From a phage, in the NCBI GenBank assembly GCA_012646185.1, contig GCA_012646185.1_4706.1: a DNA stretch of 64,000 nucleotides; one strand, given 5' to 3'. Below the pieces are notes generated by a model that saw nothing but the letters and a program-made list of their open reading frames with translations, did no database searches and was not told the DNA's origin. Positions 39,513-60,017 of the stretch are shown here, in pieces. How positions within the stretch are numbered: position 1 is the stretch's first letter; each line of letters begins with the position of its first letter. Position numbers and translations under genes: made by a program.

Positions 39513-39544
39513 CCCTCCTCCTTCCCTGTTGGGTTGGAGGAGGG
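39513..39544. terminator. bidirectional terminator hairpin, family 2 variant
   Basis: ccctcctcc ttccctgttgggtt ggaggaggg; between convergent genes. Confidence 0.55.
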
Positions 39545-39614
39545 TTATGCCGTCAAGCAAAAAAAAAAATGATAGTCACAGGCTCTCCAATGAAGGAGAG
39601 CCGTGACCGTCAGT

Positions 39615-43658: not shown

Positions 43659-43662
43659 AAAC

Positions 43663-43694
43663 CATCCTCCCTTCCCTTACGGGTTGGGAGGATG
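43663..43694. terminator. bidirectional terminator hairpin, family 2 (UUAC loop)
   Basis: catcctcccttccc ttac gggttgggaggatg; inner 20 nt identical to the hairpin at 26651-26682. Confidence 0.55.
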
Positions 43695-43711
43695 AAATAT
43701 GCCGTTAAACG

Positions 43712-44341
43712 TTATTCAACAAACCCTGCATTCAACAGATTGTCGTAAACACGATTAGCGACATCAACAGGAGAATGTGTGTTACTGGTGTCTATACACA
43801 ACGTTTTCGCATCGCCGAGATAGTCCATAAAATCCATGTAACGATAACGTCGTTTATTGAATGTCGCTTCATCGATGTTATCAAACATCTGATGTTTAGC
43901 GTGACGAACACGGAACCGTCTTAAATACGTAGGATAGTCAATATCCAGATAAACATAGTAAGACGGCATGATAATCGACGGTAGGTTCGGCAACAACGCG
44001 TCAAACAACTTAACGTTAGCGTCATTAACCTGGTAAACATACGTCGAAGCAATCGAACGATCGCTAAGCACAGTCTTCCCTTCGTTAAGGGCTGGATGAA
44101 TCACCTTGTTGAAGAGATGATTACGTTGCGACATCATCGCCAATAGTTCAGTTTCTGGATCGAATCTGTTTGTTGGTGTTTGGTCTTCCAGGATAAGTTT
44201 ACGAATGGCTTCTCCGTAGAGAGTACCACCGGGTTCACGTACAACACAAACATTGTTTAAACGACTGTGTAAAGACGAGATAACCGAACTCTTTCCTGAA
44301 TAATCCAGACCTTCAATAACGATATATTTATTACGAGACAT
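43712..44341 (-). CDS. tmk: thymidylate (dTMP) kinase
   Basis: Start reassigned to ATG at 44341 with GGAG RBS (track start is TTG). P-loop YIVIEGLDYSGKSS and REPGGTLYGEAIRKL match the thymidylate kinase signature. Confidence 0.7.
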   Translation of the reverse strand: MSRNKYIVIEGLDYSGKSSVISSLHSRLNNVCVVREPGGTLYGEAIRKLILEDQTPTNRFDPETELLAMMSQRNHLFNKVIHPALNEGKTVLSDRSIASTYVYQVNDANVKLFDALLPNLPSIIMPSYYVYLDIDYPTYLRRFRVRHAKHQMFDNIDEATFNKRRYRYMDFMDYLGDAKTLCIDTSNTHSPVDVANRVYDNLLNAGFVE

Positions 44342-44357
44342 TCCCCGCTCCAATTAA

Positions 44358-45536
44358 CTACTTCGTTTTCGCCGTTATCGGCTGCGATACTGTAATCTCG
44401 ACCCGATCGACATCGGTACGTTTAACGATGATAAGGCTGCGTTCATCACCGAATGGTTCTGAGATCTTACAAGCCTCTTTAAGATTTTCGAGAATCGTGC
44501 CATGGGGTTCAAACACCGCAAAACCGGAACTAGCGTCGATTTTTACTAAATATACACGCACATTGTTTACGGTAATGGTGTCATCCGTCTTGAACCCACA
44601 GCAGGAGGGTAGACAGAACTGGCCGGGAATACCGGCTACGTATGCCTCACCACCGAACATTTCTATTAACGTCACCGGTTTAAATGTTTTCTCTGGGAAA
44701 GCATTATTAAGGATATCGTTTCCATTCACAAACCAGATCGTCACTTTATCTTCAGAATACGCTAGTCGGTATGGTTGAGTTGCGGACGCTTGCGCTTTAT
44801 GCTGGTTAAATAATTTTGATTTTGTCGCAATCACAGCACGGCCTTGGGCGTCAAAGTACAGAACTTCATACCCAACACATCCGATAAACACGCGACGGTT
44901 ATTAAGTTCCGGAATTCTGACTAATAATGCTTCACCGTTGTATCCAGTAGGAACAATACCACGTAGGATGATAGATTCGTTATTCAATACTGAGTTGTCC
45001 ACGACGATGCTTCGCATTACCGCTGGGGTTACTGTTTTATCTGCGGTAGGTTCAGGTTGCTCAGCAATACGGTCAAAAGGTTCGATGGATACCATGGGAA
45101 CGAAGTATTCAACTATATGCTTGTTTTCAGCACCAACGTCCATGACGGTGATCTGCAAACGCGTAGCATCCGAATTCAATGCTTGTTTCACACGTTCTGC
45201 ATTAGGAGTATCACGGTCAATATGAATCAAGGCTTTTACCACACCGTCGTCTTCCAACCATCCCGTTAAAACGCGACCGACGATATCATTCACATCACGA
45301 ATCGGGAAGCACAGTTCAGCACCATCGAGCACCGCTTCGATTTTACTGCTAATGACGGGCACCTTACCGTCGTTAAGATGCGCCAGCAGACCGGTTACTG
45401 CACCTTCACTAACCGGATGTTTTGTCGTCGTACTGACCAACGGTACGATAAAACGATCTTCGCTGTATTTCTCTGCACCACAGATAACCGGGACTTGAGG
45501 ACAATAATCAACCAGCCCCCATTCAACAGTATTCAT
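44358..45536 (-). CDS. hypothetical protein
   Basis: 392-aa ORF. Confidence 0.55.
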   Translation of the reverse strand: MNTVEWGLVDYCPQVPVICGAEKYSEDRFIVPLVSTTTKHPVSEGAVTGLLAHLNDGKVPVISSKIEAVLDGAELCFPIRDVNDIVGRVLTGWLEDDGVVKALIHIDRDTPNAERVKQALNSDATRLQITVMDVGAENKHIVEYFVPMVSIEPFDRIAEQPEPTADKTVTPAVMRSIVVDNSVLNNESIILRGIVPTGYNGEALLVRIPELNNRRVFIGCVGYEVLYFDAQGRAVIATKSKLFNQHKAQASATQPYRLAYSEDKVTIWFVNGNDILNNAFPEKTFKPVTLIEMFGGEAYVAGIPGQFCLPSCCGFKTDDTITVNNVRVYLVKIDASSGFAVFEPHGTILENLKEACKISEPFGDERSLIIVKRTDVDRVEITVSQPITAKTK

Positions 45537-45568
45537 AACGTTTTCCTTCTTGGGTTTTGTACGTGTTG

Positions 45569-46183
45569 CTAACGGCGTTTCGTACCGACCTTCCCATTTC
45601 GATGGTCATCAAGAATACGCCATTCTTCGAACAGGAGTTCAGCAGCGAAATAACCTACAGCGATGCTGTCTATCGCATGCTCATCAAGATTCGCTAACAC
45701 AACACCATTCCTGGGTGTGATGTTCATGAGGTTCAATACTTTCTGGCGAACATCGTCCTTACCAACACGGGACGTCATGATCCCAACGGCGCGTTTTGCG
45801 CTTCGGTTATCAACCCCTAAGAAAGACACCGTAGGGTCAAAATCGATAACCGTTGTCTGAATCGCTGAAAACAGCTCGCTGAGCGCCATACCGCTTTGCT
45901 TGAAACGACCGATGAATGGCGTCTCACAAGCGACCGCTTGCGGCTGGTACTCTTGCAATAACGTTGTCAGCGAACGACGGTGTTCTTGGATACGTGCGGC
46001 ACGATTACCGTATCCAAGCGCAATATCGCCATCGGGATCATATCGACGTGAAGCGTGCCATGTCCCTGCATACAGCAGTTCAATATCTTCGACACGCACG
46101 TCCAAACGTAGTAACGACGCACCGAGTGTATCGGTGCCAGGGTCGATTGCCAGAATATCGTAAGCGTATTCTGGTGGGATCAT
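45569..46183 (-). CDS. RuvC-like Holliday junction resolvase candidate
   Basis: Start reassigned to ATG at 46183 (ATGA overlap with upstream stop); N-terminal YDILAIDPGTDTLGASLL resembles the RuvC catalytic ILGIDPG segment. Confidence 0.45.
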   Translation of the reverse strand: MIPPEYAYDILAIDPGTDTLGASLLRLDVRVEDIELLYAGTWHASRRYDPDGDIALGYGNRAARIQEHRRSLTTLLQEYQPQAVACETPFIGRFKQSGMALSELFSAIQTTVIDFDPTVSFLGVDNRSAKRAVGIMTSRVGKDDVRQKVLNLMNITPRNGVVLANLDEHAIDSIAVGYFAAELLFEEWRILDDHRNGKVGTKRR

Positions 46184-46995
46184 GGTGTTACAACAGCCTC
46201 TACTGACCATGGGAAGGTTTTCGCAATAACACCTTCCAGGAAGCGTTCAACTTCCGATTGCTCATACACCGAAAGCTTTTCAAACGGCGTTTGGTCTTCG
46301 GTTAAACCTACCGCATGAATAGGACCCAGGTCTTTAACCAGGGTAACTTCGCCTTTAACGCCTTCGCGCTTAACGATGATCGCGTGGTCATTAACCTTAG
46401 GATCGTACAGCACGCGCATCATGGTTACGGCGTCATCCGGTTCATGACCGAAATCGATGGCAACACGAGCATTCGTCCCTTCATCATCCAGAAGCTTGCT
46501 CAGCGCTTTACAACGGTCTTCAATCCAATCCAACGCAACCACGGTTTCTTGGCGTAGCTGAACCTCAACTTCTTTTCCTTGTTCGTCGATACGTTTCACG
46601 GTAACAAAATCGTGTAATAGGCGGTCAGGAAGGAGGGAAGCAATAAGCTCAACGTCGGGTTCAGGTTTTTCGTTTTCCAGAATGATAGTCGCTTGTGCGT
46701 CCAGATGTTCTTTAAAACGGATGTAACGTGTTAATCGCAGAACTTCATCTTGGGATTTTGCGTCTTCGGGAATAATCTCCGTCATGACGTTATAAATCTT
46801 TTCAGCGAACGTCGGAATTACGGTGATTGTAATTCGTGCTGGTGTACCACGCTCCTGGTACTCATCGGCTAACTTCTTCGCCATCCCGTTAAAATAAGTC
46901 TGGAGAAACGGTTGCTGCGTTAAAAACATTTTCTCCAGATCGGAATAGCGATGCTTGCGTGCATGGCCTAGCTTCTTCATGGGCTTTTTCATCAA
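46180..46995 (-). CDS. hypothetical protein
   Basis: 271-aa ORF between the Rad50-like and RuvC-like genes; no Mre11 phosphoesterase motifs seen. Confidence 0.55.
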   Translation of the reverse strand: MMKKPMKKLGHARKHRYSDLEKMFLTQQPFLQTYFNGMAKKLADEYQERGTPARITITVIPTFAEKIYNVMTEIIPEDAKSQDEVLRLTRYIRFKEHLDAQATIILENEKPEPDVELIASLLPDRLLHDFVTVKRIDEQGKEVEVQLRQETVVALDWIEDRCKALSKLLDDEGTNARVAIDFGHEPDDAVTMMRVLYDPKVNDHAIIVKREGVKGEVTLVKDLGPIHAVGLTEDQTPFEKLSVYEQSEVERFLEGVIAKTFPWSVEAVVTP

Positions 46996-47013
46996 CAGAA
47001 ATCCTTATTTGTC

Positions 47014-49470
47014 TTAAATAATCGTGACGTGTTCGTTATATGTTTCAGGGAGAATGATGTTCGTTTTATCAAGAACCATACACTCGGCTTTACGGAACGA
47101 CGCATGGTTGATAACATAGTGGCTGATGAACCACACCTGGCTTACGCGGTGACCATCAACCAAACGACGAACAAAATCCATGGCATTAGATTGGTGCTGT
47201 GGATCAAATGTTGATGCGAATTCGTCTAACATCAACGGATAATCCGTGAACCCTTTGTAATGCATCATCGCGATGATGAACGCGATATTGATAATTTCCT
47301 TTTGTCCCTTACTCCCATAAACAATATCTTTTCGCGGTGTCGGATACTTCTCAGTTAAAAGCGGAAAACGATAGTTCAATCCTTGCGCGTCGATAGCACA
47401 CGGGAGTATCTGAAGTTGGTATTCCCAAATACTTGCAATGATGCCGTTCATGTACTCAACGAACGCGTTGATGGGACCCGCGATTGTTTCGGCAATCAAT
47501 CCGTTAGATGGACTTAACTCATCCAGAACAAGTTGTGCGTAACTGAGCTGTTCTTCCACCTCTTTTTGTGTCGTTTCCAACTGAGCCAGAAGCTGCTGGT
47601 CGGTTTTAGCTTCCTGTAACTGCTGTTCGACATGACTTATTCGGCGAACCGTATCAGACATCGCAGCACGTAACGATTTCGTGTAGAGGTGTTGCAGATA
47701 CTCTAACCACAGTTGCGTTAACGCTTTATCGCTGTTATCAGAACGTACCTGATCTTCCATAATCGCCGTAATGGTTTCCAATCTACCTTCCGTGGCTGTG
47801 ATAGCTTGTGTTAACCGCTCAACGGTTGTTAACAACTCTGTCCTGTTCTTATAAAGCAATTCTCGACGTTGCTGTAACGGTTCAACATCAACCGCTTGTA
47901 CCCGTTCGAGCATACCTTGAAGATGCTTCCGTTCCTGTTCGGCTTGTGTGTAACGCGCGAGTTTCTCAAACGCAAGCAACCAGTCATTAATGATTCCAAT
48001 GCTGCGGAATCCTAAACCGTTTTTACGTCCTTCTTCCAGCAGATTGTCCCACATGGGTTTAATGGCGTAATAATCTTTCGTCCAACGTGTTAACTGACGA
48101 TGCTGTTCCATCCAGAGCGTATAGCGCTGAACCTTCTCACTAAGCTCGGTTAACGATTTCTCCTGTTCTTCAACCCAGGCACGGCCCTTCTGAATACGTT
48201 GTTCAATACCCGCTTTGCTGGTCTTTTCTGTCTCACCAACATGAAAGCGATAATTGCATTTTGGACAGCTGGTCTGGGGTTGATGATTCAGGTGGTCAAG
48301 ATGCGCTTCCAAATCGGCTAACGCATGTTTCGCGTTACGCAAACGCATTCTTGCCGCCTCTTCCTCCTTGATGTAAGCTTCAGCATCGTAAACATGATAG
48401 GTGTTGTCGGTATCAATCCATTCTTGCAGTAATTCCGTTAACGGAGCCTGAACTTGCGTGAGCTGTTGTAAACAAACCGCAGCGTCCAGATTCATTGTTA
48501 AAAGCTCACCTGGATGATCTTGCTGAAGTTGTTCGTCTAAACGTGCAATGCGGGCTTTAATTTGATCGATATCACCTTCGCCAGACTGTTTCAACTGGTC
48601 AAGGATATTATCGATACCCAACAGCTCGTCAACCTGACTTTCGAGTTTTGCATTCGCATTCGCGAGTTGCTCTCTTAGTTCAGCCAGATTCTGCTGTTCT
48701 TGTTGCGATGTTCCTCCTTGGTAACGAACAACCGCACGAAGAAGCTCACGATTAAAATGATGGGCGCGTTGTGCGGATTCCAGAAGCTGTCGTTGATCAA
48801 CATCGCTATCGAATAACGGCAATCCCATCATCGCTTCGAGCGCTGAGCGTTGCTGTTTTAACTCTGCTTCCAATCCCTGGTGGTCGGTGCCGGTGTATTT
48901 CGCTTCGATGCGCTGTGATGTTTCAACCAACTTATTCAGTGTATGCTCATTCACCGCTTTCAGTGAACGTACTTGTTGCTTAACCACCTGAAACAACTCG
49001 AGTGCGTAATCGACGTTAACCGGACATATCTGCGTTAATCGTTCGCGACGTTTCATCGGTCCCATTTCGGTGAACTGGTAAGCCGTTTCGTAACCTAACA
49101 ACAAACGAATAGTGTCATCATTAAGTTCGAAATGTTCTTCGATCAGTTTCCACTGAGCGGGTTGTGTGCCACCACCATTCAGGTTCTCGCTGTCGTTAAC
49201 GTAGAACTCATGCTTAAACCCTTTTTCTAAACGACTGATAAGACGGTATTGCTTATTACGGTGTTCGCAGCGGTACTCGTAATACCCGTCTTTATCAAAA
49301 TCGGCACGCTCAGGAACGGTCGGATACAGCAAAGGCAATAGACTACTCTTACCCGAACCGTTGCTGCCTAAAATGAGTTGTACGGGATTATCTGGCCGGA
49401 TGACCAGCTCCCGAATCATCCCGGTATCAAAACGATTGAATCCACGTAAGTGGAGATAGGTGCATCGCAT
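47014..49470 (-). CDS. Rad50/SbcC-like ATPase
   Basis: Start reassigned to ATG at 49470. Walker A LILGSNGSGKSS, long central coiled-coil with CPKC zinc-hook-like motif, C-terminal LMLDEFASTFD plus SHY. Confidence 0.7.
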   Translation of the reverse strand: MRCTYLHLRGFNRFDTGMIRELVIRPDNPVQLILGSNGSGKSSLLPLLYPTVPERADFDKDGYYEYRCEHRNKQYRLISRLEKGFKHEFYVNDSENLNGGGTQPAQWKLIEEHFELNDDTIRLLLGYETAYQFTEMGPMKRRERLTQICPVNVDYALELFQVVKQQVRSLKAVNEHTLNKLVETSQRIEAKYTGTDHQGLEAELKQQRSALEAMMGLPLFDSDVDQRQLLESAQRAHHFNRELLRAVVRYQGGTSQQEQQNLAELREQLANANAKLESQVDELLGIDNILDQLKQSGEGDIDQIKARIARLDEQLQQDHPGELLTMNLDAAVCLQQLTQVQAPLTELLQEWIDTDNTYHVYDAEAYIKEEEAARMRLRNAKHALADLEAHLDHLNHQPQTSCPKCNYRFHVGETEKTSKAGIEQRIQKGRAWVEEQEKSLTELSEKVQRYTLWMEQHRQLTRWTKDYYAIKPMWDNLLEEGRKNGLGFRSIGIINDWLLAFEKLARYTQAEQERKHLQGMLERVQAVDVEPLQQRRELLYKNRTELLTTVERLTQAITATEGRLETITAIMEDQVRSDNSDKALTQLWLEYLQHLYTKSLRAAMSDTVRRISHVEQQLQEAKTDQQLLAQLETTQKEVEEQLSYAQLVLDELSPSNGLIAETIAGPINAFVEYMNGIIASIWEYQLQILPCAIDAQGLNYRFPLLTEKYPTPRKDIVYGSKGQKEIINIAFIIAMMHYKGFTDYPLMLDEFASTFDPQHQSNAMDFVRRLVDGHRVSQVWFISHYVINHASFRKAECMVLDKTNIILPETYNEHVTII

Positions 49471-49584
49471 GCTATGATAATCCTTCTTCGATACCTTCTG
49501 AACCACGGGTTCAGAATGCGAAGCTGAAGCCATACTTCAGCGTTATTTTCTATATCGTTATTTAAATCAGTAGGAGATTACAGC

Positions 49585-50673
49585 ATGAGCGACCTGGCAA
49601 CAGACAATCGCACAAAAGGGAGTCAGCTAGCTCCAGACAACAACGTAAGCGTTTTCCGTATCTATGCCTTGGGTACTGTTGCTGCCGACTTTTCCAATAA
49701 AAGTCTGGAGGAAGATCCTAACCAGGCGCTGGAGGTCTTTCTTGATGAGATGATGTCAGGCGCTGATGGGAAAGTTGAAGCGGCGGGAAGCGTGAAAGAA
49801 GTCAGTGCAACAGACGCTCAAGGGAACAGCTATACGGCGAAAGCGGCAACAACAACCAGCGTACAGTGTTATTGGTTACCTTTCGGTAGTAACCGGATGA
49901 CAGCACCTAACTTGAGGAAAGGTCAACGTGTGGTGGTCTGGCGTACCGCCGATGAAGAACAACTCTACTGGCAGCCCAAAGGAGGGGATAGTGAGCTGAT
50001 GACCATGGAATCGGTTATCCTCACCGTCAGCGCACGTCCTAGCGCTAAGAAGGACCGTAAATCGATTTCAACGGAAGACTGCTATTACCTAATGGTTGAT
50101 ACCTTCCTCAAGAAAGCGGTTATCGGTACAAGCGCACAGCTTGGTGAAGTTACCCAAGTCTACATGGAACTTAATCTGGACGAGGGTTACCTACAGGTTG
50201 CGGACAGCGTCCATCAAAATCTGTTGTTACTCCATTTTGTCGAGCATATGCTGCGTTATCAAAATCAGGATGACAGCATCATCGACGTGACAAAAAAGAA
50301 CATCACATTCCAATGCGAGGATACGCTCAAAGCAATCGCTAAGAACGATATCCGAATGAAAGCAAAAAATATTTATACCGAATGTGAGAACTTTGAACGT
50401 ACCAGCAAAACAGAAAGCGTTACGAGTCAGAATGTTTCTTTGAAGTGTGATCGTTACACCGCGCAAGTATCAGGACAGACCACGTTTAAATGTCCGAATA
50501 CGGTATTCACTGGAGCTGTAAGCTTCACAGGTGAAGACGGAAACACGATGACGTTGAATGGAAACTTCATACACATCGCAGGCTCTTGGCGTTCACCAAC
50601 CGGAACAAACGTATACACCCACGATCACGGCGGTGTAGATCGTGGTAGCGGTCGCACAGACCCGTTCCAATAA
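49585..50673 (+). CDS. hypothetical protein
   Basis: 362-aa ORF, ATG with AGGAG RBS. Confidence 0.6.
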   Translation: MSDLATDNRTKGSQLAPDNNVSVFRIYALGTVAADFSNKSLEEDPNQALEVFLDEMMSGADGKVEAAGSVKEVSATDAQGNSYTAKAATTTSVQCYWLPFGSNRMTAPNLRKGQRVVVWRTADEEQLYWQPKGGDSELMTMESVILTVSARPSAKKDRKSISTEDCYYLMVDTFLKKAVIGTSAQLGEVTQVYMELNLDEGYLQVADSVHQNLLLLHFVEHMLRYQNQDDSIIDVTKKNITFQCEDTLKAIAKNDIRMKAKNIYTECENFERTSKTESVTSQNVSLKCDRYTAQVSGQTTFKCPNTVFTGAVSFTGEDGNTMTLNGNFIHIAGSWRSPTGTNVYTHDHGGVDRGSGRTDPFQ

Positions 50674-50699
50674 ACAAAAGAAAAAGAAATGCTATATAA

Positions 50700-50735
50700 C
50701 CTCCTTCCCTAGCCGTCAAGGCCGGGGAAGGAGGA
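50700..50735. terminator. bidirectional terminator hairpin, family 1 (loop inverted relative to 2558-2594)
   Basis: cctccttccctagcc gtcaa ggccggggaaggagg; inner 21 nt is the exact reverse complement of the inner part of the 2558 hairpin while flanks keep the same orientation. Confidence 0.55.
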
Positions 50736-53407: not shown

Positions 53408-53707
53408 TTAAGGTTTAGGTTCCGTTTTGTATTGTGCGAGTAATGTGTTGATCTGCTCCCGTTGTTCTTTTAAGTATGCGGGAAGCTGGTCTTCCCGTAC
53501 CGTTCCGATTTCCAACGTGATGTACCAGCGTTGTTCGGAAGCCTGCCATTGAAAACTGCTCTGTAGCCGTAGGATGCTAGGATCACGTACCTTGCTTGCA
53601 CTGTAGTGATCGAACCAATCCAGGTATTCTGCTTTCCCTTCCTCATCGGCAACGTAACGCTGCACGCTGTTCTTCCCTTTGTTTTCGTATCCCGTTGCAC
53701 GTATCAT
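53408..53707 (-). CDS. hypothetical small protein
   Basis: Start reassigned to ATG at 53707, forming an ATGA overlap with the upstream stop. Confidence 0.45.
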   Translation of the reverse strand: MIRATGYENKGKNSVQRYVADEEGKAEYLDWFDHYSASKVRDPSILRLQSSFQWQASEQRWYITLEIGTVREDQLPAYLKEQREQINTLLAQYKTEPKP

Positions 53708-54486
53708 GCGAACGTTTCTCCTGTAATGTGTTGCGGATGGCGTAGCATGGTAGCATCCCATTGTACGATCCGGCTCCGGCTTACCAGCATCATGACGGAT
53801 TCATCGTCAAGCCCTGGCTGCGCAACCGGCAACCAACGTTCGTTAAGCACCTTCGCTTCAACACGTTTCTTGCGGGGATTGTAGCGCACTTCGCTAACCC
53901 AAGCGAATCCAAGTGGATGCACAACCCGTGGATAATACATGCGAAGCAATTGATGCATCCGATCCGTTGCCTCCAGATTGCAATCCACCATGTAAGGTTT
54001 CACCATGGTAAGCTTTTTGGTGTAATACGTTCCAACGGTATGGTTACGCCAACTTGGCAAGGCATGATCCCCTTCTCTCAGTTTGCTATCCGAGTTCATC
54101 GGCCAGACCTGCTGTTTACCGGCCAGCATCGCGTACTGCCGATCAACGCAACGAACCTGATCGGCGAACAATGGATCCAGAACATCATCCACCGCACCCT
54201 TATTGCGATAACCGTGATGTACCACCAACCTGCTTGCGCTCATCGATGCGGGATGCTGGCTCTTATGCGCATACAGCCCACCGTCACCGCGAGGGTCGTA
54301 AAGATAGCCGCATGCGCCACGCCATATCACCTTGCCTACGGTTCTCTCGTTTTCAAGCAGCATCGTCGGCCCATCAAGCAAATTGGTGAACCACTGCACC
54401 TTCACGCATTCCGCTTGGACATGCTCAGGTAATGCCTGATACTCTTTTTGGGTGTATAAGGTATCAAAAATGATTTCATCGTTCAT
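53704..54486 (-). CDS. hypothetical protein
   Basis: 260-aa ORF with GAGGAA RBS; first gene after the promoter motif at 54577. Confidence 0.55.
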   Translation of the reverse strand: MNDEIIFDTLYTQKEYQALPEHVQAECVKVQWFTNLLDGPTMLLENERTVGKVIWRGACGYLYDPRGDGGLYAHKSQHPASMSASRLVVHHGYRNKGAVDDVLDPLFADQVRCVDRQYAMLAGKQQVWPMNSDSKLREGDHALPSWRNHTVGTYYTKKLTMVKPYMVDCNLEATDRMHQLLRMYYPRVVHPLGFAWVSEVRYNPRKKRVEAKVLNERWLPVAQPGLDDESVMMLVSRSRIVQWDATMLRHPQHITGETFA

Positions 54487-57968: not shown

Positions 57969-60017
57969 TCAAATACCCTTGGTTCCTTTCACGTGATGTG
58001 CGATTTCTTCAACCATTGCACGCAGAGCACGAAGCTGTTGGTCGTGTTCGTACCAACCACCTAACAGAACCCCGCTATACACCATGGTGTCAAGACTTAA
58101 CAGTCCTTTATCTGATACGTTGATCATTTCAGGGAACTGTTCTTGAACACGCTGTGCGATAACACCGATCTTCTCGACATCAGGATCGTAGTTGTGACGG
58201 AAACGGGCAAGCCCGCTGCGCGCCATTTCACGTAAACGTTCACTGAGAGATTCCGGATGATCTTTCAGATAACGGATGTCGTGTTTACTACGCTCATCCG
58301 AGCGAATGTAAGCGTTAGGAACATCGATATTGCTGTTGAAGTACAGCGCACTACCACCGCCTGCAGAGTTCCCCCAATAGAAGCGTGTGATCTCACCGCC
58401 GCCATTTTCCGTGATGATAACATGTTTACCTAAACGCGTACCACCATTACCATCAACGAAGACCAGTTTGTTTCCGCTGTAAGAACCCCAGAACAAGCGT
58501 GTATCGATGATGTGCGTCGCAGCGAGACGGGCGTTACGTGGTGTAGAATACACGGTGTTCACATCTTGCTGTGCATGCGCATCGGAAGCGATACCGTAGT
58601 TCTGTACGTTACCCAATCCTACCTGCGCTTTTGTAACAGCATGTGGGTTGTCTCGACGGTTAGCGTGAGCGTTAACCAGATCACCCGCTAATTTCTGAAT
58701 TGCCCAGTTGGTAGACTGTGGCGTCATGTAACGGTTCGTTGCAGAACCACCTTGCGCTTCAGCTTGGTTAGCGGTTGGATAGTTCTCAACACTTCCTAAC
58801 CCTACTTGTGCTTTAGACACTTGGTGTGGGTTATTCTTGTCAGCGATGTGTGCATTAAGCGGAACTAACGCAAAGGTCTCAATGGACGCTTTGGTTGTGT
58901 TCGGTGCCATTAATCGGTTAGCTGCAACACCGGCACGCGCTTCTTCTTCAGACGCCATTGGGTAGTCTTGCACATTCCCTAACCCAACCTGTGCTTTGGT
59001 CACCCTGTGTGGGTTGTTGTAATCGGCTTTATGCGCATTAAGTGGAATCAATGCGAACTGTTCGATCGCGGCAACGGTACGTAGCGGTGTCATGAAACGG
59101 TTGTTCGCTGTTCCGGCTTTCGCCTCATCATCCGAAGCGGTCGGGAAGTTATCAACGTTCCCAAGGTTAACCTGTGCTTTGGTGACGCTATGCGGGTTAT
59201 CCCGACGGTTAGCATGCGCGTCGACTAGATCGCCCGCCAGTTTAGCAATCGCCCATCCAACCGTTTGTGCGGTCATGTATCGGTCAGGTGCAGTACCGGC
59301 TTCTGCCTCCGCCTTGTTGGCGGTAGGATAGTTCTGTACGTTACCTAGTCCGACTTGGGCTTTTGTTACTTCGTGCGGGTTATCGGTACGGTTAGCATGC
59401 GCGTAATGCAGATCGGTCAGATCTTTATCCGCTGCTTGCATGTCTTTGCGTAGCTGATCGATTGCCGCCCAGAGACGGTTATCGGATGCGGCGTCACCGA
59501 TAAGTATTGCGGCTTTCAGTGAATAGATCGCTAAGCAAAGATGTTCGGTACCGTAGATAGCACTAACGTGGTGGATGTGTGGTTCAGGCGGATAGAGTTC
59601 CGGTTTGTTCTTGATGTCATCCCAGTTGATCGGACGATCGTCAAGTTTGAGTTCTTCGATAGCCTGATATAACGCGTCAATAAGACTTACGTAAACACCA
59701 CCGATGATACGATAGTCGTTAACTAATGTACCCTCGATATCATCGTTGATAATGGCGATGGCTGCACAGATTTCTTTACCCGCGTAAAGCGTTGCATCCT
59801 GATACAAGAAGATGGGTTTATAATCCACGCCTCGTACCAGTGTCTTACCGGTAAGCTTTTCAGTGATGACCAGACTTTCGGTGAAGAACGGTCCGCCATC
59901 GAGGGCGTAACATTTATTCTCGGTTCGTGGAACGGTATGCTCTTCACCAACGATGTGGTTGCTGGCGAGTGTACCGGTCCAGTCCTCGGGGTACTTCAGG
60001 GTAATTGGTGTCGACAT
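57969..60017 (-). CDS. tail fibre protein with tandem repeats and C-terminal intramolecular chaperone domain
   Basis: Five ~60-aa repeats each carrying HxxxxxNPHxVTKAQVGLGNVxNYP; C-terminal SDERSKHD...GGWYEHDQQLRAL resembles the autoproteolytic chaperone domain of phage fibres and endosialidases. Confidence 0.75.
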   Translation of the reverse strand: MSTPITLKYPEDWTGTLASNHIVGEEHTVPRTENKCYALDGGPFFTESLVITEKLTGKTLVRGVDYKPIFLYQDATLYAGKEICAAIAIINDDIEGTLVNDYRIIGGVYVSLIDALYQAIEELKLDDRPINWDDIKNKPELYPPEPHIHHVSAIYGTEHLCLAIYSLKAAILIGDAASDNRLWAAIDQLRKDMQAADKDLTDLHYAHANRTDNPHEVTKAQVGLGNVQNYPTANKAEAEAGTAPDRYMTAQTVGWAIAKLAGDLVDAHANRRDNPHSVTKAQVNLGNVDNFPTASDDEAKAGTANNRFMTPLRTVAAIEQFALIPLNAHKADYNNPHRVTKAQVGLGNVQDYPMASEEEARAGVAANRLMAPNTTKASIETFALVPLNAHIADKNNPHQVSKAQVGLGSVENYPTANQAEAQGGSATNRYMTPQSTNWAIQKLAGDLVNAHANRRDNPHAVTKAQVGLGNVQNYGIASDAHAQQDVNTVYSTPRNARLAATHIIDTRLFWGSYSGNKLVFVDGNGGTRLGKHVIITENGGGEITRFYWGNSAGGGSALYFNSNIDVPNAYIRSDERSKHDIRYLKDHPESLSERLREMARSGLARFRHNYDPDVEKIGVIAQRVQEQFPEMINVSDKGLLSLDTMVYSGVLLGGWYEHDQQLRALRAMVEEIAHHVKGTKGI

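Follow-up and report, generated by a model that had tools for sequence, protein, structure and literature searches.

A Rad50/SbcC-like ATPase of a Goslar-like jumbo phage and its probable SbcD-like partner encoded outside the operon

Results and discussion

Operon encoding the SbcC-like ATPase

A Rad50/SbcC-like ATPase is encoded by the first gene of a five-gene operon in a 64,000-nucleotide stretch of phage DNA (contig GCA_012646185.1_4706.1 of the GenBank assembly GCA_012646185.1), the whole of which is referred to here as the window. An earlier note, made from the letters of the window alone, described positions 45,569 to 49,470 as encoding such an ATPase with a zinc hook, next to a gene that does not resemble the Mre11 nuclease and close to a RuvC-like gene. 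The analysis presented here indicates that the nuclease partner of the ATPase is very probably a diverged SbcD homologue encoded elsewhere in the phage genome. All five genes of the operon are on the minus strand and are listed in the order of their transcription:

47014-49470, minus strand: SbcC/Rad50-like ABC ATPase of 818 residues, orthologue of Goslar gp12 (99.1% amino acid identity)
46180-46992, minus strand: orphan protein of 270 residues, homologue of Goslar gp11, found in the Goslar clade only
45569-46183, minus strand: predicted RuvC-like Holliday-junction resolvase of 204 residues (Goslar gp10, core gene cg40)
44358-45536, minus strand: orphan protein of 392 residues, homologue of Goslar gp9
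43712-44341, minus strand: thymidylate kinase (Tmk) of 209 residues (Goslar gp8, core gene cg32; PF02223, E 9.6e-28), the last gene of the operon

The reference genome is that of Escherichia phage vB_EcoM_Goslar, a 237-kb nucleus-forming jumbo phage of the family Chimalliviridae. All 64 kb of the window are colinear with positions 197,676-237,307 and then 1-24,493 of Goslar, with 93-97% nucleotide identity in local blastn, and the matching gene content is gp218-gp187 (RefSeq numbering) and gp1-gp29. The part of the window containing the operon (43700-49600) is 96.2% identical to Goslar over 100% of the query in megablast. A single IMG/VR contig has an exact 52-mer in common with the window and belongs to a relative with 97.2% identity, and the exact gp9 protein occurs on a 7-kb SRA contig only.

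The genes of the operon are tightly packed. The gaps between them, from the SbcC-like gene to the Tmk gene, are 21, -4, 32, and 16 nucleotides, and the ATG of the RuvC-like gene overlaps the stop codon of the 270-residue gene in the sequence ATGA. Ribosome-binding sites of the AAGGA type are positioned 5' of three of the starts, those of the SbcC-like, 270-residue, and 392-residue genes. The gene call of an independent SRA assembly provided identical products of 818, 270, 204, 392, and 209 residues. Dozens of independent Logan/SRA contigs with lengths of 7,026-7,121 bp span exactly the block formed by the baseplate gene that precedes the operon and the SbcC-like, 270-residue, RuvC-like, 392-residue, and Tmk genes (approximately 43660-50730 of the window). 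The near-equal lengths of the contigs suggest recurrent assembly breakpoints, caused by repeats or hypervariable flanks, on either side of the block.

Structure and conservation of the SbcC-like ATPase

The 818-residue protein has the bipartite head characteristic of Rad50 and SbcC, in which the Walker A motif and Q-loop belong to the N-terminal part of the chain, and the signature, Walker B motif, D-loop, and H-loop to the C-terminal part. The Walker A motif, CPKC hook, and C-terminal signature described in the earlier note are thus all present:

49342-49374, minus strand: Walker A motif (P-loop) ILGSNGSGKSS, residues 33-43 (GSNGSGKSS, residues 35-43), with G35, N37, G40, K41, S42, and S43 invariant in 40 homologues
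48241-48279, minus strand: zinc hook PQTSCPKCNYRFH at the apex of the coiled coil, with C402-P-K-C405, in which C405 never varies and the conservation of C402 is at least 90%
47110-47325, minus strand: C-terminal ATPase lobe, with the signature YGSKGQKE (S720), Walker B motif LMLDE (D749 and E750), D-loop residue D756, and H-loop residue H784

In the family alignment, which comprises 40 homologues of 800-860 residues, S720, D749, E750, and D756 are invariant, and the conservation of H784 and of the Q-loop residue Q106 reaches at least 90%. The two lobes of the head are separated by predicted coiled-coil arms of approximately 230-245 residues each, which are poor in proline and glycine, and the CxxC hook is positioned symmetrically between them.

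The similarity of the protein to Rad50 extends over the head and the hook. The best matches of the family profile among PDB sequences are Rad50 from Pyrococcus furiosus (3qku, E 1e-13) and Rad50 from Methanocaldococcus jannaschii, and both halves of the Rad50 head are matched (3qku, and 3qkr_B with an E-value of 2e-6). The profile positions 362-460, which surround the CPxC motif, match the Rad50 zinc hook structure 1l8d (E 1.5e-4). The heads and arms of SMC3 and SMC2 match the profile more weakly than Rad50, and the arms of the family resemble the coiled coils of SMC proteins and of designed proteins. The protein itself matches phrog_77 'SbcC-like' with an E-value of 2e-74; none of the NCBIfam models was reached.

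The start of the SbcC-like gene at position 49470 is that of all 40 homologues and of the independent gene call, and an AAGGA sequence is located 10 nucleotides upstream of it. A longer in-frame open reading frame beginning at 49533 is unsupported, as the homologues begin at 49470, and its ATG lies in the loop of a hairpin. The hairpin (49523-49541, GCTGAAG-CCATA-CTTCAGC) has a perfect stem of 7 bp, is followed by a T-run on the plus strand, and is located in the intergenic region between the divergent SbcC-like and baseplate genes. The Goslar annotation calls the hairpin a terminator, though no plus-strand gene ends there.

Homologues of the SbcC-like protein were detected by tblastn in 289 phage records, all of them from phiKZ-like, RAY-like, SPN3US-like, or similar jumbo phages. 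The gene is the Chimalliviridae core gene cg44, which corresponds to Goslar gp012, phiKZ gp165, and RAY gp023 (PMC10299810 Table S3). The orf165 of phiKZ tolerated zero transposon insertions (10.1101/2025.11.23.690004), and antisense knock-down of 165, like that of 065, lowers plaquing (PMC12571901). The labels of the gene are inconsistent among records, and include 'nuclease SbcCD subunit D', 'BspA family leucine-rich repeat surface protein', and 'RecN-like DNA repair protein'.

SbcD-like nuclease gp178 of Goslar

Calcineurin-type phosphoesterases, for which a search had been proposed in the earlier note, are encoded nowhere in the 64-kb window. The Goslar records name no SbcD or Mre11, and the only metallophosphoesterase named in them is gp157. 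The lead to the nuclease was provided by the core-genome table of the chimalliviruses, which lists the core gene cg8 (Goslar gp178, phiKZ gp065, and RAY gp238) as a 'putative nuclease' (PMC10299810 Table S3):

162,609-163,751 of NC_048170, outside the window: Goslar gp178, SbcD-like protein of 380 residues

In terms of the window, the gp178 locus is positioned approximately 34 kb before position 1, and therefore could not be seen by the reader who had made the earlier note.

Goslar gp178 matches phrog_100 'SbcD-like' over residues 7-368 with an E-value of 1.8e-40. Its match to the Pfam family Metallophos is below the threshold (14.8 bits versus 21.5), yet extends from end to end. The sequence of gp178 was aligned with those of six homologues from chimalliviruses or related phages: Noxifer, a Phikzvirus, SPN3US, PBS1, PhiEaH1, and Aphrodite1. 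Five phosphoesterase motifs, the third of them in a variant form, can be distinguished in the alignment. Motifs II (G56-D57), III (G96-T97-x-x-H100-D101), IV (H172), and V (G209-H210-x-H212) are invariant in all seven proteins, and motif I (D20-x-H22) is found in the six that are annotated from a start early enough to contain it. The profile of the seven sequences has 17 matches in the PDB, of which 16 are Mre11 or SbcD chains, including Mre11 from Thermotoga maritima (3qg5_C, E 5.7e-7), 2q8u, 7dog, SbcD from E. coli (4lty and 6s6v), and Mre11 from P. furiosus (1ii7). The remaining chain has an E-value of 0.16. In the HMMER alignments, GDL is paired with GDL, GTxsHD with G--NHD, and GHvH with GHIH. 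A hidden Markov model from which the Goslar sequence had been left out still detects gp178 (E 7.6e-86), as its sole match in both Goslar and the window. Proteins of the gp178 type are likely to be catalytically competent.

Other routes to a nuclease partner were unsuccessful. A regular-expression search for the canonical motifs (DxH...GD...GN[HD][DE]), made in all six frames of both the window and Goslar, found nothing. The search thus missed gp178, whose motif III reads GTNLHD, and the canonical motifs are therefore unreliable as the sole means of searching. Goslar gp157 (L004:25000-25557; 185 residues; Metallophos_2, E 3e-8; phrog_547 'phosphoesterase') is too small, occurs sporadically, and is not co-distributed with the SbcC-like protein. 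Its relatives are found mainly in Yoloswag-type Erwinia phages, and also in phages of Enterococcus, Bacillus, and Streptomyces. A 337-residue 'phosphoesterase' encoded near the SbcC-like gene of Bacillus phage AgentSmith (L015:8722-9735) belongs to the DHH type (RecJ/NrnA-like) according to the annotations of its homologues, and has no homologue in Goslar. DHH phosphoesterases also occur in the chimalliviruses EL, Noxifer, RP12, 2050HW, and PhiEaH1.

The annotation of the SbcD-like protein differs among records. The Goslar records to date give gp178 and its close relatives as 'hypothetical protein', and many of the other records matched by gp178 are already annotated as 'nuclease SbcCD, D subunit'. 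A pangenome paper marks a soft-core cluster 'SbcCD D-subunit' as present in Goslar.

Co-occurrence and separation of the two genes

The genes for the SbcC-like and SbcD-like proteins are found in the same phages. The tblastn search with gp178 matched 315 phage records, versus the 289 of the SbcC-like protein. Eight genera are listed in both searches, and the record counts are equal in seven of them: Pseudomonas (81), Erwinia (62), Salmonella (24), Serratia (21), Aeromonas (19), Klebsiella (16), and Ralstonia (13). The counts for the eighth genus, Vibrio, are 23 and 22. Goslar itself encodes both proteins.

The 818-residue protein thus very probably serves as the ATPase in an SbcCD complex of the conventional Rad50-Mre11 type, with the nuclease subunit provided by the unlinked and diverged orthologue of gp178 and phiKZ gp065, encoded approximately 81 kb away. 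The earlier note had considered that the partner might be encoded elsewhere, be highly diverged, or be replaced by a different nuclease. The first two possibilities apply together, and the third is unnecessary, because a diverged SbcD homologue is encoded elsewhere in the near-identical genome of Goslar. The unusual features of the system are modest, and consist of the family-wide separation of the genes and the absence of the canonical asparagine from motif III.

Several observations weigh against this assignment. The linkage that is usual for such partners in bacteria and phages, though it does not strictly define the family, is absent, since the SbcC-like and SbcD-like genes are apart in all ten genomes compared. 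The shorter circular distance between them ranges from approximately 42 kb in AgentSmith to 121 kb in Viktualia, with 81 kb in Goslar, 88 kb in both Kc263 and CF8, 94 kb in pTD1, 105 kb in Noxifer, 109 kb in Desertfox, and 112 kb in SL2; for Serratia phage 2050HW, the block structure likewise places the gene outside the 10-kb neighbourhood. In nearly all characterised SbcCD and gp46-gp47 pairs the genes are neighbours; here, a complex would have to form from the products of genes that never are. The gp178 orthologue of the phage studied here would be located outside the window, and its presence is expected from the near-identity of the window to Goslar and from the core-gene status of gp178. 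Motif III is GTxxHD in all seven aligned proteins instead of GNHD, so that the metal-binding asparagine is not conserved. On the side of the ATPase, the match to the Pfam family SMC_N reaches 39.6 bits, which is 0.4 bits short of the cut-off of 40. Finally, neither the single SbcC-like sequence nor the single gp178 sequence has a significant match among PDB sequences, and the kinship of the ATPase to Rad50 is visible only through profiles.

The separation of the genes could also be explained if the SbcC-like protein mainly tethered or organised the phage DNA inside the nucleus in the manner of SMC proteins, without a nuclease, and the gp178-type phosphoesterase functioned independently. The unequal effects of knock-down by antisense oligonucleotides in phiKZ, which lowers plaquing more strongly for 065 (++) than for 165 (+) (PMC12571901), are in agreement with independent functions, as are the matches of the family profile to SMC heads and arms. 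However, the best structural relatives of the protein are the heads and hook of Rad50 and not the hinges of SMC proteins, and it lacks a hinge domain. Furthermore, the near-perfect phyletic co-occurrence with the SbcD homologue is that expected of obligate partners. A mainly nuclease-free role is therefore hardly probable.

Proteins encoded downstream of the ATPase

The 270-residue protein encoded immediately downstream of the ATPase has no match in Pfam, PHROG, NCBIfam, PADLOC, or PDB sequences, and contains neither a phosphoesterase motif nor a conserved His/Asp pattern of that kind among its homologues, in agreement with the earlier note. A word-index search identified three homologues, and five, three of them strong, were identified when a HMMER profile was searched exhaustively against 1.84 billion representatives. 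Every homologue found belongs to the Goslar clade, within which the sequence is very strongly conserved, with 302 members in one cluster at 90% identity. The AlphaFold model of the protein has a mean predicted local distance difference test score of 74, with values of approximately 87-96 for residues 21-130, and is composed of α+β modules of a helix and three strands; the other four models are poor. A Foldseek search of the model against BFVD provided a best template-modelling score of 0.35.

The position of the gene directly 3' of the SbcC-like gene and the roughly compatible size of its product are the only points in favour of an adjacent, extremely diverged Mre11/SbcD. However, the five phosphoesterase motifs and the calcineurin-like β-sandwich are absent from the protein, the orphan is restricted to one clade, and a bona fide SbcD homologue is phyletically coupled to the SbcC-like protein. 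The Mre11 fold that would have made this a conventional adjacent pair was not found, and, as judged from the predicted model, which lacks a nuclease fold, the 270-residue protein is not Mre11. That it is a cryptic member of the family is extremely improbable.

The 204-residue protein encoded by the next gene is, by its sequence, a distant member of the RuvC family, as the earlier note had suspected. It scores 26 bits against PF02075 (cut-off 22.2) and matches phrog_159 with an E-value of 1.6e-21. The catalytic motifs AIDPG (D14), ACE (E87), and DEHAIDS (D167, H169, and D172) of a resolvase are present, and the alignment with the RuvC structure 7w8d covers the catalytic glutamate. The protein is considered a distant member because its scores are far under the cut-offs of the NCBIfam equivalogs.

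The organization of the operon raises the question of whether the SbcC-like ATPase uses a nuclease other than Mre11 from its own operon, with the RuvC-like resolvase or the 270-residue orphan, the latter as an adaptor, as candidates, in an end-processing and resolution machine specific to the clade. Other Rad50-like ATPases are known to pair with varied nucleases, and there is weak similarity to LmuB, AriA, and PtuA. The ATGA overlap and the short gaps tie the SbcC-like, 270-residue, and RuvC-like genes closely together, and the same order is kept in two relatives whose proteins are only 45-50% identical. Outside the Goslar clade, however, the arrangement is lost. The 270-residue gene is absent, the RuvC gene is far from the SbcC-like gene in RP31 and sm033, and the genes located 3' of the SbcC-like gene are unrelated in phiKZ-type phages, in Noxifer, and in the metagenomic loci L011-L014. 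In L011, the SbcC-like gene is directly followed by a gene for a 275-residue protein, which was considered as an analogue of the orphan; it is a baseplate assembly protein (phrog_3216, E 5.5e-64) with no similarity to the orphan. Together with the absence of a nuclease fold from the model of the 270-residue protein and the family-wide co-occurrence of a true SbcD homologue with the SbcC-like protein, these differences make a nuclease from the same operon improbable. The RuvC-like gene is a separate core gene, and nothing points to RuvC standing in for Mre11.

The 392-residue orphan, which the earlier note had proposed to check for a nuclease fold, is unsupported as a nuclease in all tests, including those against Pfam, PHROG, NCBIfam, and PADLOC. 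Its N-terminal domain has a prohead-protease-like fold.

The 270-residue orphan is positioned between the core genes for the SbcC-like and RuvC-like proteins, is translationally coupled to the latter, and is very strongly conserved without a recognisable fold. These properties led to the idea, which we regard as doubtful, that it is a new accessory factor coupling or regulating end processing by SbcCD and resolution by RuvC, and that differences between the two subunits in expression or in import into the phage nucleus might lie behind the separate positions of the SbcC and SbcD genes throughout the family.

Other features of the window

The only stretch of the window without a blastn match to Goslar is 54054-54397 (344 bp). 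It is located inside the open reading frame 53704-54486, a homologue of Goslar gp21, in which the N-terminal part of the protein is replaced or hypervariable. Positions 39520-39569 of the window run unbroken across both ends of the Goslar GenBank record, with approximately 50 bp matching the end and the start of the record. The published linear ends of Goslar thus look arbitrary, as they would in a circularly permuted genome or after an assembly overlap. A diverged direct repeat of approximately 420 bp, with approximately 65% identity and an offset of 183 bp, is located at 58596-59198 within a gp25-like virion structural or tail-fibre gene.

Proposed function of the complex

By analogy with the characterised family, the SbcC-like protein would form a dimer, with ATP and DNA bound by its bipartite ABC heads and the long antiparallel coiled coils joined through the zinc-binding CPxC hook. 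ATP-driven engagement of the heads and tethering by the hook would control the manganese-dependent nuclease, the gp178 orthologue. The probable task of the two subunits is to open or resect ends and hairpins in DNA. Further proteins encoded by chimalliviruses are a UvsX-type recombinase (cg49), the RuvC-like resolvase (cg40), and replicative helicases (PMC10299810 Table S3), and the likely role of the complex is therefore end processing for recombination-dependent replication. The processed ends may be passed to the recombinase and the resolvase in recombination-dependent replication and repair, presumably inside the phage nucleus.

Both the SbcC-like and SbcD-like genes are published core genes of Chimalliviridae. 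That the Rad50 seemed to be an orphan is a result of the 64-kb view, as chimalliviruses carry both SbcC and SbcD, never side by side. The significance of the result past annotation is small: gp178 and its close relatives can be annotated as SbcD-like nuclease subunits. The phiKZ pair gp065 and gp165 (Goslar gp178 and gp12) is, despite the separation of the genes, a candidate complex for studies of recombination-dependent replication in nucleus-forming phages.

Comparison with known systems

The best matches among solved structures are P. furiosus Rad50 (3qku, 1ii8, and the hook 1l8d) and T. maritima Mre11 (3qg5), with which the proteins share the lobes of the head, the hook, and the nuclease core, at very low sequence identity.

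SbcCD of E. coli and gp46/gp47 of phage T4 have the same architecture as proposed here, with a bipartite ABC ATPase, a coiled coil, a CxxC hook, and a nuclease of the calcineurin type with five motifs. The similarity to these systems is at the level of profiles only, and motif III is GTxxHD here, whereas it is GNHD in them. In E. coli and T4, the two genes are adjacent and co-transcribed, in contrast to the separation of approximately 81 kb in the Goslar genome. T4 gp46/gp47 process DNA ends for recombination-dependent replication, a role presumably shared by the proteins of the phage from which the window originates.

Among the closest systems are those of other chimalliviruses. The proteins gp165 and gp065 of phiKZ (cg44 and cg8) and gp023 and gp238 of RAY are orthologues with the same lengths and motifs, and their genes are also unlinked, as are those of the Noxifer orthologues NOXIFER_165 ('SbcC protein') and NOXIFER_58 ('nuclease SbcCD, D subunit'). 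The side of the SbcC-like gene facing its divergent neighbour, the baseplate gene cg43, is common to the window, phiKZ, RAY, and Noxifer. In contrast, the opposite side differs: in Goslar-type phages the SbcC-like gene is followed by the genes for the 270-residue orphan, RuvC, the 392-residue orphan, and Tmk, and in phiKZ and Noxifer by unrelated genes.

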